A stretch of 64,000 bases of DNA from NCBI GenBank assembly GCA_030065125.1, contig JASJDM010000016.1, positions 52,328 to 116,327 on the forward strand. The letters are read 5' to 3'. A program made the translations under genes and the position numbers. Positions 13,596 to 25,170 of the stretch are shown piece by piece. Position 1 is the first letter of the stretch. Each line of letters starts with the position of its first letter. The DNA comes from Lysobacterales bacterium. Its GTDB lineage: Bacteria; Pseudomonadota; Gammaproteobacteria; Xanthomonadales; SZUA-38. The notes beneath the pieces were generated by a model that saw nothing but the letters and a program-made list of their open reading frames with translations, was not told the origin of the DNA and did no database searches.

Positions 13596-14801
13596 ATGAA
13601 TCACCCCAAGCAGCCAGCGCCGGACCACCTGCTGGGCGTCTACGGGCGGATGCCCGTTCGTTTCCAGCGTGGCGAAGGCGTGTGGCTGTGGGATGATCAG
13701 GGAAACCGCTACCTGGACGCCATCACGGGAATCGGCGTGTGCAGCCTTGGGCACGCCCATCCGGAGATTGCCGACGCCATTGCCGACCAGGCACGGACAC
13801 TGATTCACACGTCCAATATTCCGCGCATTCCGCTGCAGGAACAGCTGGCGGAACAGCTGTGCGAGATCGCCGGGATGGATCACGCGTTTTTCGGCAACTC
13901 CGGCGCGGAAGCCATCGAATGCTGCGTCAAGATGGCCCGGGCCTACGGCCATCGGGTGCGGGGCATTTCCAGCCCCGAGATCCTGGTCATGTCGGGTTGT
14001 TTCCACGGTCGGACCATGACCTGCATCAGTGCCAGCGACAATCCCAAGTACCAGCAAGGTTTTGAGCCCCTGCTGCCGGGTTTTGTCAGCGCCCCTTTCG
14101 GCGACCTGGACGCGGTTCGGGCACTGGCATCCAGCCACCCGTCCCTGGTGGCCGTGATGCTGGAACCCGTGCAGGGCGAAGGCGGCGTTGTGGTGGCCCC
14201 AGACGGCTACCTGGCCGACCTTCGAGGGCTGTGTGATGAGCTGGGGCTGCTGCTGATTGCCGACGAAGTTCAGACCGGCATGGGCAAAACCGGCAGCTGG
14301 TTCGCCTACCAGCACGAACAGGTGGTTCCGGACATTGTCGCGGTCGCCAAGGCGCTCGGAAACGGGGTCCCCATCGGGGCGTGTCTGGCGCGAGCCGAGG
14401 TATCCCAGGTCATGGTGCCCGGAGATCACGGTTCGACCTACGGCGGCAATCCCCTGGCCTGCCGCGCCGGCCTCGCCGTCATCAATATCATGCGGCGCGA
14501 CGACATTCCCCAGCGGGCCGCCGACATGGGGCAGCGCCTGCGCCTGCGCCTGGGCCAGCGCCTGGCCGACACCCCCGGAGTCCGGGAAATTCGCGGCCGC
14601 GGGCTGATGATCGGCATCGAACTGGACCGCGACGCCACCCCGGTCAAGACCGCGGCCCTGGGCCGGCATGTCCTGACTAACGTCACCCGCGGGAAGGTGG
14701 TGCGGTTGTTACCGCCGCTGATTATTGAGCAGGAGGAATTGGAGCTGCTGGCCGAGGTCATTGGTGATTCGATTCTGCAGCTTCTGGAAGGGGGCGAGTA
14801 G
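13596..14801 (+). CDS. argD: Acetylornithine/succinylornithine aminotransferase (class III PLP)
   Basis: GIGVCSLGHAHP, NSGAEAIE, FHGRT, EPVQGEGG, DEVQTGMGKTG, AKALGNGVPIGA, HGSTYGGNPLAC. Confidence 0.88.
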   Translation: MNHPKQPAPDHLLGVYGRMPVRFQRGEGVWLWDDQGNRYLDAITGIGVCSLGHAHPEIADAIADQARTLIHTSNIPRIPLQEQLAEQLCEIAGMDHAFFGNSGAEAIECCVKMARAYGHRVRGISSPEILVMSGCFHGRTMTCISASDNPKYQQGFEPLLPGFVSAPFGDLDAVRALASSHPSLVAVMLEPVQGEGGVVVAPDGYLADLRGLCDELGLLLIADEVQTGMGKTGSWFAYQHEQVVPDIVAVAKALGNGVPIGACLARAEVSQVMVPGDHGSTYGGNPLACRAGLAVINIMRRDDIPQRAADMGQRLRLRLGQRLADTPGVREIRGRGLMIGIELDRDATPVKTAALGRHVLTNVTRGKVVRLLPPLIIEQEELELLAEVIGDSILQLLEGGE

Positions 14802-14810
14802 CTGCTCAAT

Positions 14811-14928
14811 GGGGAACGCTCGCTGCGCGAGCTAGGAAACGCGTCCTGCGGACGCTGGGGAACGCTCGCTGCGCGAGCTGGGGAACGGCCGCTATGCGGC
14901 CTGGGAAACGCGCGCTTCGCGCGCTGGG
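14811..14928 (+). repeat. Left array: five tandem 23-bp hairpin units
   Basis: Units start at 14811, 14834, 14857, 14880 and 14903; each is RGGRAAC + 6-bp stem + 3-nt loop + complementary stem + T (stems GCTCGC, GCGTCC, GCTCGC, GGCCGC, GCGCGC). Confidence 0.92.
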
Positions 14929-15015
14929 TTGTCCCCCCTGCTGCTCGCCAATCCACACGCAGCAGCCATTCGAAGTCAGCACACCTTGGGAACCTGTTTA
15001 CCATGAGCGAAGGGG

Positions 15016-15107
15016 CCCAGCGCGAAGCGCGTTCCCCAGGCCGCGCCAGCGGCCGTTTCCTAGCGTCCGCAGGACGCGTTTCCTAGCTCGCGCAGCGAGC
15101 GTTCCCC
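15016..15107 (-). repeat. Right array: four hairpin units, inverted relative to the left array
   Basis: Reverse complement of 15085-15107 equals left unit 1, and of 15062-15084 equals unit 2; 15038-15061 resembles unit 4 (4-nt loop); 15019-15037 resembles unit 5 (4-bp stem). Confidence 0.92.
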
Positions 15108-15110
15108 GGG

Positions 15111-16238
15111 TCAATGCCCTCTGGTGAATGCCTCAACTCCCGACTCCTTCAACTGCTCTCCCAGTGCAAGGGCGAATTTCCCCAATTCCGCCTGTAGCGC
15201 CAGGATGTTCTCGGCGTTGATGGTCACGTGGCCGACTTTGCGACCGGCGCGTGGTTTTTTGCCGTAGTCGTGCCAGTGGGCGTTGGGGTAGCTGAGGGCG
15301 TTGGAGGGGTCTGGCATGGCGCCGATCCAGTTGAGCATGGCAGATGCGCCAACCGGGTCGGTTGAACCCAACGGCCAGCCCATGATCGCCCTCAGGTGGT
15401 TTTCGAACTGTGATGTGACGGCGCCGTCGATGGTCCAGTGCCCGGAATTGTGCACCCGTGGCGCCATTTCGTTGGCAACCAGGCCGTCATCGACGTCGAA
15501 GAATTCGATGGTCAGCACACCGCAGTAGTCCAGGTTGTCCAGCACCTTGATGGCATAAGCCCTGGCGCGCTCCACCAGCAGGCCGGCGTTGGCCGGCGCA
15601 AAGCTGGTAATCAGAATTCCGTCTTTGTGACGATTCTCGGTCAGGGGATAAAACACCGTTTCGCCCCGGGTCGAGCGGGCCGCGATAATGGACAACTCCC
15701 GCTTGAATCTGACGAACGCCTCTAGGATCAGCGCCTGGCCGCCCAGGTCCGACCAGGCCTGGTCCACCTGCTGTCGGTCCTGGATGATGCGCTGGCCCTT
15801 GCCGTCGTATCCCATGCGGCGGGTCTTGAGAACGCAGGGGTATCCCATTTCGTCCGCTGCGCTGACCAGGTCGTCGTAGCTGTCCACGGACGCAAACAGG
15901 GCACAGGGAATGCCCGCGTCGGAGAAGAAGGTTTTTTCCCGCAGCCGGTCCTGGGAAACCTCCAGGGCCTGGTAGCGGGGAAACACCGGCAACGAATCGG
16001 ACAGCGACCGGGCTGACGCCACCGGCACGTTCTCGAAATCGTAGGTCACGATATCCACGGCGTCTGCCAGTTGCGCCAGGGCCGCTTCGTCATCGTAGGG
16101 AGCACAGATCAAATCCCCCACCACACCGGCGCAGGCATCTTCAGCAGGGTCCAGGAAAACAAACTCCTGCCCCAGCGGTACGCCTGCCAGAGCCATCATG
16201 CGGCCCAGCTGGCCGCCGCCCAGTACACCGACTTTCAT
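15111..16238 (-). CDS. purK: N5-carboxyaminoimidazole ribonucleotide synthase
   Basis: VGVLGGGQLGRMM, TYDFENVP, KTRRMGYDGKGQ, NEMAPRVHNSGHWT, SQFENHLRA, YGKKPRAGRKVGH; downstream of purE. Confidence 0.96.
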   Translation of the reverse strand: MKVGVLGGGQLGRMMALAGVPLGQEFVFLDPAEDACAGVVGDLICAPYDDEAALAQLADAVDIVTYDFENVPVASARSLSDSLPVFPRYQALEVSQDRLREKTFFSDAGIPCALFASVDSYDDLVSAADEMGYPCVLKTRRMGYDGKGQRIIQDRQQVDQAWSDLGGQALILEAFVRFKRELSIIAARSTRGETVFYPLTENRHKDGILITSFAPANAGLLVERARAYAIKVLDNLDYCGVLTIEFFDVDDGLVANEMAPRVHNSGHWTIDGAVTSQFENHLRAIMGWPLGSTDPVGASAMLNWIGAMPDPSNALSYPNAHWHDYGKKPRAGRKVGHVTINAENILALQAELGKFALALGEQLKESGVEAFTRGH

Positions 16239-23379: not shown

Positions 23380-23862
23380 ATGAACCAGACCTGCCCTTTT
23401 CTGATCCGGGCCGAACAGATCGAAGCCTCGGACGATTCAGCGTCCCATCCCTGGAACCCGAACTCTGCCATGCGTGGCATGCACCTGAGCAAACAGACCG
23501 GGCTCACCGATACCGGCATCAGCTGGGTTGAGGTTCCGCCAGGAAAGGAATCCTGCGTCTATCACCTGCACTACCGGGAAGACGAGTGGATCTACATCCT
23601 GTCAGGGTCCGGCACCGCCGAAATCAACGACCGGGAGTACGCCGTTGGCCCGGGGGATTTCATGGGCTTTCCAGCGGGCAAGGCCGCGCACCATCTGCGC
23701 AACACCGGCTCCGAGCCCCTGCGCTACCTGATGGGCGGCAGCAGCAAGCGATTCGAGCTGGCGGATTTTCCGCGACTGGGCCGCAGGGTGATTCGCCAGG
23801 ACGGCGAAATCGGGGTGGTGAAGCTGAGTGATATCTCGGACTTTGAAGCGGACAGCCCCTAG
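23380..23862 (+). CDS. Cupin domain protein
   Basis: GGAGGA RBS then ATG at 23380; HLHYREDEWIYILSG...GPGDFMGFPAG..AHHLRN cupin motifs. Confidence 0.85.
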   Translation: MNQTCPFLIRAEQIEASDDSASHPWNPNSAMRGMHLSKQTGLTDTGISWVEVPPGKESCVYHLHYREDEWIYILSGSGTAEINDREYAVGPGDFMGFPAGKAAHHLRNTGSEPLRYLMGGSSKRFELADFPRLGRRVIRQDGEIGVVKLSDISDFEADSP

Positions 23863-23871
23863 CGGACGTGC

Positions 23872-24150
23872 TTATCTCGGCAGTCCGAAGCGGCCGAACC
23901 AGAATGCAGCCAGCACCACGCTGAAACTGAGAAAACCCGCGGTAGCACCAACCACCGTAGGCCAGATGCGCGCATCAGCCGGCTCCAGCTGGGCAGCCGC
24001 CAGGGCGGACAAAGCCCAGGCCGTTGCCGCCACCGCGAGTGCCAGCCAGTCTCTGTTCCGGCTTCCCCGCCGGCGCGGAAAGGTCCAGAAGATCCAGGCA
24101 ATGGTCAGGTTTACCGGCAGGAGAACCCCCTGCGCACCCCACACCTCCAT
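23872..24150 (-). CDS. Small hypothetical membrane protein
   Basis: 92-aa ORF with three hydrophobic segments, starting 12 bp downstream of the trpS stop. Confidence 0.6.
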   Translation of the reverse strand: MEVWGAQGVLLPVNLTIAWIFWTFPRRRGSRNRDWLALAVAATAWALSALAAAQLEPADARIWPTVVGATAGFLSFSVVLAAFWFGRFGLPR

Positions 24151-24162
24151 CGATTGGACCTG

Positions 24163-25170
24163 TCAGCCCAGCTTGCGTATGCCCACGGCGGCGCGCACCT
24201 TTTCCATCAGCGGGATGGCTTTTTCCCGGGCCTTGCGGGCACCCTCCAGGAGCACGGCTTCGATTTCGCCAGGTGAGGCAATCAGCTGGTTGTAGCGCTC
24301 GCGCCCGGGCGCCAATTCGTCATTGATGCGCTCGAACACGATCTTCTTGGCTTCCCCCCAGGCCAGCCCGTCGGCCAGCTGCTGCTTCATCTGCTCCCGC
24401 TCCGCCTGGCCGACGAAGGCGGCATAGATGGGATACAGGGCTGACTCATCGACGCTCTTGGGTTCTCCCGGTTCCTTGGAATTTGTGACGATGCGCATGA
24501 CCGACTTGCGCAGCTTCTTGGCGCCCTGCCAAAGCGGAATGGCGTTGTCGTAGCTCTTGCTCATCTTGCGGCCGTCAAGCCCCGGAAGCACCGCTGCCGT
24601 TTCGTCGATCACGGCCTCGGGCAGCACAAAACATTCGCCGTAGCGGTGATTGAATCGCTGGGCAATGTCCCGGGCCATCTCCAGGTGCTGCCCCTGGTCT
24701 TTCCCTACCGGCACCTTGTGGGCGTTGAACATCAGGATGTCCGCCGCCATCAGTACGGGATAGTTGAACAGGCCCATGGTCACCTCGTAATCCGGATCCT
24801 GGCCCGCCGCCACGTTGTCCTGGACGGCCGCCTTGTAAGCGTGGGCCCGGTTCATCAGGCCCTTGGCGCAGGAACAGCCGAGTATCCACGTCAGTTCGGG
24901 GATTTCCGGAATGTCGGACTGCCGGTAGAACGCCGCGTTGTCCGTATCCAGGCCCAGGGCCAGCCAGGTGGCGGCAATTTCCAGGGTCGACTGGTTCACC
25001 CGCTCGGGATCCTCACACTTGATCAGCGCGTGATAGTCCGCCAGGAAATAGAACGACTCCGTATCGGTGAGCCGGCTGGCTTCGATGCTGGGCTTGATGG
25101 CCCCCACGTAGTTGCCCAGGTGGGGCGTACCCGTGGTGGTGATACCTGTCAGTACCGTGGTTTTGGACAT
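24163..25170 (-). CDS. trpS: Tryptophan--tRNA ligase
   Basis: [14 protein letters not shown] (HIGH-like), [35 protein letters not shown]. Confidence 0.96.

Follow-up and report, generated by a model that had tools for sequence, protein, structure and literature searches.

The 64,000-nucleotide stretch analysed here (the window; contig JASJDM010000016.1 of the Lysobacterales assembly GCA_030065125.1) derives from an uncultured organism in marine-sediment metagenomes and carries, between the convergent genes argD and purK, a palindromic element (14811-15107) whose two arms are arrays of short, hairpin-forming tandem units. We propose that this element is probably a gene-less member of a family of intervening-sequence-like cassettes: palindromes with arms of tandem G-rich units that, in their full form, enclose a gene for a four-helix-bundle protein (PF05635/TIGR02436; 'S23p', Avd-like). 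The central evidence is another contig of the same genome, on which arms of the same family bracket such a gene.

Structure of the argD–purK element

The element fills the gap between the stop codons of argD and purK, the argD stop codon lying 9 nt before it and the purK stop codon 3 nt beyond it. Its parts and neighbours in the window are:

14811..14925, + strand: left (G-rich) arm, five direct 23-bp units (sequence, Tandem Repeats Finder, pattern match, unit folding)
14926..14928, + strand: terminal GGG, the incomplete last heptamer closing the left arm, mirrored by CCC at 15016-15018
14929..15015, no strand assigned: 87-nt non-coding core of the common ~90-nt class ('class I') (core alignment, folding)
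15019..15037, - strand: short unit A GCGC GAA GCGC GTTCCCC, innermost of the right arm (genome matches)
15038..15107, - strand: right (C-rich) arm, made of three full units in inverted orientation; their stems are GGCCGC (with a loop of 4 nt), GCGTCC and GCTCGC
13596..14801, + strand: argD, acetylornithine transaminase (NCBIfam TIGR00707/NF002325, 442-447 bits; open reading frame (ORF) listing)
15111..16238, - strand: purK, N5-carboxyaminoimidazole ribonucleotide synthase (NCBIfam NF004679, 449.5 bits)

Each 23-bp unit begins with RGGRAAC; then come one strand of a 6-bp stem, a 3-nt loop, the other stem strand and a T. In the left arm the units run head-to-tail on the + strand (14811-14833, 14834-14856, 14857-14879, 14880-14902 and 14903-14925) with stems GCTCGC, GCGTCC, GCTCGC, GGCCGC and GCGCGC and loops TGC, TGC, TGC, TAT and TTC, and Tandem Repeats Finder reports a period of 23 with 5.2 copies. 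The two outer units of the right arm, 15085-15107 (stem GCTCGC) and 15062-15084 (stem GCGTCC), are exact inverted copies of left units 1 and 2, and the rare GCGTCC unit thus stands at mirrored positions in both arms. Further in follow the GGCCGC unit (15038-15061), which has a 4-nt loop and is 24 nt in all, and a unit shortened to 19 nt with a 4-bp stem (15019-15037, GCGC-GAA-GCGC). A first-pass annotation, made from the sequence alone, had described five left units facing four inverted right units across an 87-nt core between convergent argD and purK, with the outer two units as exact inverted copies; the sequence and NCBIfam bear out this layout. The number and inversion of the four right units stand as described, except that the innermost is a distinct, nearly invariant short unit. 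The strict unit pattern has seven matches in the window against 0.58 expected, all seven within the element.

The inverted repeat of the element is 61 nt long and 93% complementary, its 87-nt interior being flanked by GGG on the left and CCC on the right. The whole 309-nt spacer is predicted to fold into a single long hairpin of -228 kcal/mol (-227 for the other strand), with folding z-scores of -15.7 and -16.1 for the two strands, and individual units also fold alone as 6-bp hairpins, so both of the alternative folds envisaged at first are found among the predictions. No promoter-like or intrinsic-terminator-like site was found inside the spacer. A scan of the element against Rfam (E <= 1) returned only a sub-threshold match to the plant MIR1437 microRNA hairpin (63 bits against a threshold of 168 bits), which we judge spurious and due to the long hairpin. 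Three metagenome contigs that were assembled independently agree over the spacer at 100% identity, one of them ending inside the element; the spacer is therefore not an assembly artefact. A marine-sediment metatranscriptome contig matches the 3' end of argD (window 14616-14796, one mismatch) and stops at 14796, five bases short of the argD stop codon and just before the element; the contig may stop here because the transcript ends or because the assembly broke at the repeat.

The same arms enclose a four-helix-bundle gene

The source assembly is a 6.52-Mb metagenome-assembled genome (MAG) from marine sediment with 62% G+C, whose contigs are designated here by C-numbers, and it holds two PF05635 genes, on C117 and C111. 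The first lies within the single copy of the family that bears a gene (C117:23448-24218). This gene (C117:23739-24095) is intact, encodes 118 aa, scores 116.8 bits against PF05635 (at 23751-24053) and 113 bits against TIGR02436 (cut-off 24 bits), and is flanked on one side by ten + units (23448-23672) and on the other by the short unit, which follows its stop codon, and four - units (24106-24218). When copies are oriented by the short unit, the family has a fixed build: G-rich arm, GGG, core, CCC, short unit, C-rich arm. The C117 copy and the gene-less copies share unit vocabulary, position of the short unit and polarity, and the + strand of the window corresponds to the coding strand of the C117 gene.

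Across the order PF05635 genes are patchy (32 of 81 genomes, 1-5 copies each). Inverted arrays of 7-9-mers bracket about 11 of the 29 PF05635 loci that were sampled in other genomes of the order, a count that holds as far as the ORF picking is sound; the array units include AGGGACT, AGGGCCT, GGGGACC, CAGGGCT, GGGATTC, CGGGAAT and GTGACGC, and in these cassettes the coding strand carries the G-rich array upstream of the gene. Proteins closest to that of C117 are only ~62% identical; their genes show the same build, with arms of GAGACGA or GTGAGTC beginning right at the stop codon of the gene upstream, and the polarity recurs at three metagenome or genome loci. Because relatives of the C117 gene sit between plain inverted arrays of G-rich heptamers, RGGRAAC is the heptamer of this class, and the 16-nt hairpin that follows each heptamer is a lineage-specific addition. 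In two genomes of the same order, the PF05635 genes at L067 (G025:C14:68006-68197) and L055 (G062:C17:57962-58228) are bracketed by CGGGAAT and GGGATTC arrays, the same heptamer as in the published Xanthomonas GGGAATC repeats.

The argD–purK element has no PF05635/TIGR02436 gene in its loop, and its 87-nt core is non-coding; the feature of the cassette class that it does possess is a pair of inverted arms of short tandem units with the G-rich arm 5'. We therefore file it as a gene-less derivative and not as a full member of the cassettes. The combination of gene and heptamer arms was not found in the literature searched. Nevertheless, the first impression of a wholly undescribed system did not survive, since the same arms bracket a PF05635 gene at C117 and relate the element to intervening-sequence-like cassettes and to the Xanthomonas GGGAATC pairs. 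An intervening sequence in the organism's own 23S rRNA was also considered and set aside, the assembly containing no 23S rRNA gene.

The second PF05635 gene (C111:2590-2949, - strand) encodes a protein of 120 aa, 57% identical to that of C117, and is bracketed by inverted arrays of the octamer GRCTCCGT (C111:2495-3040). Such arrays occur at 40 places in the genome, with at least ten gene-less composites of + array, ~100-nt core and - array, including:

C8:6322-6489, gene-less octamer copy
C25:123473-123646, gene-less octamer copy
C44:18568-18759, gene-less octamer copy
C57:4069-4243, gene-less octamer copy
C92:44399-44558, gene-less octamer copy
C108:14892-15173, gene-less octamer copy

One group of octamer-element cores occurs in both orientations relative to the neighbouring genes. 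At a contig end, C44:27370-27507 holds a truncated third PF05635 copy that matches the last 46 residues of the C111 protein at 98% identity; there is probably more than one octamer-armed cassette in the genome. Two types of gene plus arms coexist in this genome, each with its own gene-less copies.

Size, distribution and grammar of the unit family

Across the whole assembly there are 290 perfect units, against 0-2 for five scrambled-linker controls, so the repeat is not confined to the argD–purK locus. A relaxed search (one stem mismatch and loops of 3-5 nt permitted) returned 485 units at 147 loci, 79 of which have at least two units. Among them are 45 composite elements of + units, core and - units, 180-400 bp long; the order - then + was never seen. 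Because thirteen arrays sit at the ends of contigs, the family is larger than these counts; in the source metagenome the read depth over the arms is ~70 times that of the flanks. A three-unit pattern has 128 matches in the source genome and none in 40 relatives (14 of the same family, all of other genera), while a search of one genome per species over 185,579 species gave only 14 unrelated simple tandem repeats. The unit family is thus restricted to this lineage.

The modal arm has four units plus the terminal GGG, and the innermost unit of the G-rich arm usually has the stem GCGCGC. The short unit is nearly invariant and is innermost in one arm only, which gives the element its polarity; its sequence has 52 matches in the genome (<=2 mismatches), 36 of them with the core-end motif 60-125 nt downstream. 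About ten stem types are common (GCGCCC, GCTCGC, GGCCGC, GCGCGC, GACCGC, GGCTGC, GGCCCC, GCTTGC, GCTCAC and GCACGC) and appear along the arms in loose order. Tandem duplication of blocks of 2-4 units is seen, for example on C62, C33 and C70; arms grow by duplication of single units and of unit blocks. The two arms of one element are more similar as mirror images (0.48) than arms of different elements are (0.32; permutation p = 0.0025). Nowhere in the genome do two RGGRAAC heptamers adjoin, the heptamer spacing being 23 nt, and contiguous GGGGAAC arrays were accordingly rejected as precursors.

Stem pairing and strand asymmetry

That stems vary while pairing is kept and the RGGRAAC linker stays constant had been noted at the argD–purK locus, and it holds throughout the genome. 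We selected intervals by linker spacing alone (RGGRAAC, 16 nt, RGGRA; n = 311), which leaves the set unbiased with respect to pairing: 259 of the 311 pair at 6/6 positions and another 36 at 5/6, whereas sliding the 3' partner by +1 or -1 base leaves at most one fully paired interval (1 and 0 for the two shifts). There are 26 distinct perfect stems, with three or four Watson-Crick pair types at each of positions 2-5, and the linker is GGGGAAC in 302 of 417 units. Pairing is therefore maintained with the stem sequence free and the linker fixed. Yet the stems come from a limited vocabulary, and units and blocks are duplicated, so that much of the apparent covariation between neighbouring units at argD–purK is reuse of existing paired types, not new compensatory change.

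The two strands are not equivalent. On the C-rich strand the loop is GNA, closed by a C-G pair, in 200 of the 290 units, and the short unit contains GCGAAGC; d(cGNAg) is a very stable type of DNA triloop. Single mismatches, read on the G-rich strand, are A:C in 20 cases and G:T in 5 (p = 0.004), a bias also seen in the unbiased set (26 vs 12; p = 0.03). This is suggestive only, but it hints that wobble pairs are tolerated on the C-rich strand and that this may be the folding strand.

The core

The core had first been taken to be unique; instead, a homologous core, equal in length, is present in ~25 further copies. Class I cores measure 87-93 nt (93-99 nt with the bracketing TGGG and CCCA), nearly all of the aligned ones starting with TGGG and ending with CCCA, and they share a weak central CTTCGA-like motif. 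Identity between cores is otherwise mostly near random, apart from one subfamily at 70-81%; the argD–purK core is 71% identical to the core at C55:13167. In the best-conserved subfamily, changes affect all four bases with transitions dominant, indels break the frame and one copy has lost its ATG. The core thus evolves as expected under neutral drift, with a substitution spectrum that is ordinary, and this makes the conservation of the arms more striking. The same spectrum led us to reject adenine-specific diversification of the core in the manner of Avd and diversity-generating retroelements.

Some short cores with GCGAGC-N4-GCGAGC (C117:25912, C1:185766 and others) match the last codons and trailer of the C117 cassette (z = 6.9 and 3.6). 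Descent of all cores from the C117 cassette by deletion was considered too, and it holds only for this minority. A tblastn search for remnants of the four-helix-bundle gene in the cores, that of argD–purK included, found none.

Genomic context

Genes were called with a purpose-made simple codon-usage caller (5,024 genes, 90% of the genome). The 61 arrays that could be classified comprise 30 between convergent genes, 26 between genes in the same direction and 5 between divergent genes, compared with 683 (18%), 2,360 and 773, respectively, for all spacers genome-wide; arrays are therefore enriched between convergent genes (p = 2.5e-8) and depleted between divergent ones (p = 0.009). The distance from stop codon to first unit has a median of 25 nt across arrays. 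With single arms, G-rich units fall on the sense strand of the upstream gene about 22 times versus 4 (p = 5e-4; hand tally of the array table), and in 12 of 16 cases between genes in the same direction, element and neighbours share one orientation.

Two unrelated predicted proteins (C1:184214-184837 and C1:185750-186724) end in the same tail, ...QGTAALRPGERASR, because the frames of both extend into two inverted copies of the element, which bracket ~1.35 kb with a TetR-like gene and a CPBP-like membrane protease gene, and here the element rewrites the 3' ends of genes.

Discussion

A non-autonomous element with modular ends, one of the possibilities raised in the first-pass annotation, is in our judgement the best description of the argD–purK element. 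Gene-less copies would have arisen from the gene-bearing cassette and would be, or have been, spread by whatever propagates it, in what appears to be a transposase-less system; either selection or the copying process would preserve the arms and their hairpins, and the core would drift neutrally. As for RNA, read-through from argD or purK may fold the first arm into a string of hairpins, and where both arms are transcribed they could pair into a ~100-bp duplex. By analogy with the 23S rRNA intervening sequence of Coxiella, such a duplex would be a substrate of RNase III, and its processing might define or insulate the 3' ends of the convergent argD and purK transcripts. On RNA, the element probably acts through 3'-end structuring or RNase III processing.

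Several observations weigh against a cassette origin. Only one copy bears the gene, which might thus have inserted as a passenger into a repeat that already existed. The common ~90-nt cores, that of argD–purK among them, have no similarity to the interior of the C117 cassette, and simple internal deletion of a master copy consequently fits only a minority of copies. No two assembled cores are more than 85% identical, so that recent movement is not demonstrated. Empty sites and target duplications, which a mobile element might be expected to leave, did not appear: no target-site duplication was seen at the flanks of the 45 composites, whose outer boundaries are somewhat fuzzy because the terminal units are degenerate, and neither presence/absence polymorphism nor a clean empty site was found among relatives, the nearest of which are only ~70% identical in PurK; a metagenome scan for closer ones gave nothing above 58% identity. 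In addition, several copies are found immediately beyond canonical intrinsic terminators, a position in which one expects little transcription, and this weakens a general role at the RNA level. The metatranscriptome has nothing over the element, which is uninformative because contigs break at repeats.

The strongest competitor, although we consider it improbable, is a host-maintained, non-mobile 3'-end device, seeded by slippage and recombination and serving as a two-way insulator, an mRNA stabiliser or an RNase III site. Such a device would suit an element that spans the argD–purK gap from stop to stop with no intrinsic terminator in the spacer, that has a very stable fold, and whose G-rich units are always the first to be met by each convergent transcript; the conservation of arms around decaying cores and the mirror-image likeness of the arms of one element (0.48 vs 0.32) would follow as well. 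Yet relatives have the same gene pair with a spacer of roughly 40-110 bp (an estimate) and without the element, many copies lie beyond ordinary terminators, and a host device leaves unexplained both the identical arms around the four-helix-bundle gene and the octamer family. It is in part compatible with a gene-less cassette, as an effect rather than an origin.

Distinctly less probable is an origin as repetitive extragenic palindromes (REPs), bacterial interspersed mosaic elements (BIMEs) or REP doublets forming hairpins (REPINs), that is, as small palindromes copied by a domesticated HUH tyrosine transposase (REP-associated tyrosine transposase, RAYT) acting on hairpins in single-stranded DNA. 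The present units are likewise small, GC-rich, extragenic, high-copy hairpins found after stop codons and between convergent genes, and the GNA loops of the C-rich strand, the GCGAAGC of the short unit and the apparent tolerance of wobble pairs on that strand would all suit copying from a single strand. However, no unit type has a GTAG or CGTC tag at either end, units within an arm are direct and switch orientation once, at the core, instead of alternating, and the conserved part is a single-stranded heptamer rather than a palindrome. A linked HUH/RAYT gene was sought: the genome has three PF01797 (Y1-transposase) genes, on C53, C122 and C22, and none is flanked by RGGRAAC units. Without tag, alternation or flanking RAYT, the family is not a REP/BIME-RAYT system as these have been defined (PMC2817692, PMC3733652). 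The PF01797 gene on C53 (C53:2030-2710, ~220 aa) has its own 26-bp inverted repeats (GGGGTCAGAGTAAAGGGACAGAGTAA), unrelated to the hairpin units, and looks like a Y1 element associated with terminal inverted repeats rather than a RAYT.

A role as non-B DNA, in which four or five GGGG tracts spaced by hairpin-forming loops form G-quadruplexes with duplex loops and so act on replication, supercoiling or recombination, seems to us just as unlikely as the REP origin. The heptamer is of the same class as the Xanthomonas GGGAATC repeats, which form G-quadruplexes in vitro (PMC4692102), the linkers are mostly GGGG (the 302 of 417 noted above), and a modal arm of four units and a terminal GGG would supply the necessary tracts. 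Here the quadruplex is only a candidate structure, and other cassettes of the class use G-poor units such as AATAGTA, GAGACGA and GTGAGTC, so that quadruplex formation is not the property that defines the class.

A structured small RNA or micro-protein as the product of the core, with the arms only as processing or termination signals, is in our view very improbable. The conserved core length and the shared CTTCGA-like motif would fit, but the folding energies of the cores are no different from those of shuffled sequence (mean z = -0.24 on one strand, +0.40 on the other), most core identities are near random, and the frame-breaking indels, the changes at all four bases and the copy lacking an ATG speak against a coding function. 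Since the sub-threshold MIR1437 hit was the only Rfam match, the suggestion of a structured RNA in the first-pass annotation is not upheld.

Other candidates were dismissed more readily. A classical MITE (miniature inverted-repeat transposable element) is ruled out: the family does have terminal inverted repeats, in that the outer two units are exact inverted copies, but there is no target duplication and no parent insertion sequence encoding a transposase, the sole gene-bearing copy encoding the 118-aa four-helix-bundle protein. The family is therefore neither a REP/BIME element nor a classical MITE, and the absence of REP GTAG ends and of CRISPR spacers, noted at first, was confirmed; in a CRISPR array, units would not abut without spacers and differ in sequence as they do here. 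A Xanthomonas-type contiguous heptamer repeat does not fit heptamers that are 23 nt apart and never adjacent. A GIY-YIG partner was discarded because the single PF01541 match lies in a 640-aa open frame near no array, and an autonomous, transposase-bearing copy between distant + and - arrays because the enclosed genes are ordinary (a rhomboid-like membrane protein, a regulator, dehydrogenases).

A further step beyond the gene-less cassette, which we put forward tentatively and consider unlikely as it stands, is that four-helix-bundle (S23p/Avd-like) proteins and short tandem repeats form cognate pairs in a transposase-less selfish or regulatory system, with the hairpins as rigid spacers that present single-stranded GGGGAAC at a 23-nt pitch to an oligomeric protein ring. 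The protein bAvd is a pentamer. The solved Xanthomonas homologue 2GSC has five chains in the entry, and together with the modal arm of four units and a GGG we counted these as fitting a multivalent ring. If true, this would be the first natural case of two orthogonal protein-repeat pairs in one cell and would open a way to learn how heptamer repeats are maintained or spread in bacteria. The two arm types with their own genes make specific recognition between protein and repeat directly testable.

More broadly, our analysis brings together two old and unexplained observations, namely heptamer repeats (the short tandemly repeated repetitive sequences, STRR, of cyanobacteria and the GGGAATC repeats of Xanthomonas) and the S23p genes of rRNA intervening sequences. 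Hairpin-separated heptamers show that the constraint is on the heptamer and its regular presentation, and not on contiguity or arm-to-arm pairing. At a practical level, the family accounts for many contig breaks in the MAG and for the tight, stop-to-stop filling of gaps between convergent genes, and it could mark this lineage in marine-sediment metagenomes.

Comparison with known systems

Among modular MITE-like repeats, pneumococcal BOX (boxA-(boxB)n-boxC) and the Correia elements of Neisseria resemble the present family in being non-coding, dispersed and modular, with a variable number of modules and long hairpins predicted in transcripts. They differ in that the modules described here are 23-bp combinations of heptamer and hairpin set in mirror-image arms, with no target duplication seen and no transposase-bearing parent insertion sequence.

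REPs are defined as imperfect palindromes of 20-40 bp with GTAG or CGTC at one end (PMC3733652). The likeness of REP, BIME and REPIN sequences to the present units goes beyond small GC-rich extragenic hairpins in hundreds of clustered copies after stop codons and between convergent genes, because they too have variable stem types with the pairing kept. Theirs are tagged, alternating and RAYT-flanked, whereas the present units are untagged and direct and have a conserved unpaired heptamer.

Closer are the GGGAATC repeats of Xanthomonas, which form 70-75 convergent inverted pairs per genome and have been discussed as G-quadruplex formers, with no protein linked to them (PMC4692102). Both families have a G-rich heptamer (compare GGGGAAC), are intergenic and frequently place a + array before a - array, and the number of Xanthomonas units varies between related genomes (PMC4692102). 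The Xanthomonas heptamers are contiguous, whereas those described here are separated by covarying hairpins. The paper on the Xanthomonas and Nostoc (GGGGAYT) heptamer repeats (Rehm et al., 2015; PMC4692102) mentions neither S23p nor four-helix bundles nor intervening sequences.

The closest parallel is provided by the intervening sequences of 23S rRNA in Coxiella and Leptospira, which likewise have long terminal inverted repeats, a stable stem and a loop that can hold a four-helix-bundle gene (PF05635, S23p). In Coxiella burnetii the intervening sequence, in helix 45, contains an S23p ORF, has a 28-bp terminal stem, is excised by RNase III and carries 3-4 GACAGAT heptamers, whose number varies between strains (PMC4990558). 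These tandem heptamers beside the ORF, their strain-variable number and the sporadic distribution of the intervening sequences can be likened to the present family, and the C117 copy shares with them both protein family and polarity. Unlike them, the present element lies between protein-coding genes, and its argD–purK copy is gene-less; its arms have 4-10 units with a 16-nt hairpin per heptamer, each arm can also fold on itself, and there are ~79 arrays in one genome. In summary, the system has already been published in pieces, as S23p intervening sequences, Xanthomonas heptamer pairs and cyanobacterial STRR; what is new is the unit of heptamer plus hairpin, the polar short unit and the coexistence of two protein-arm pairs.

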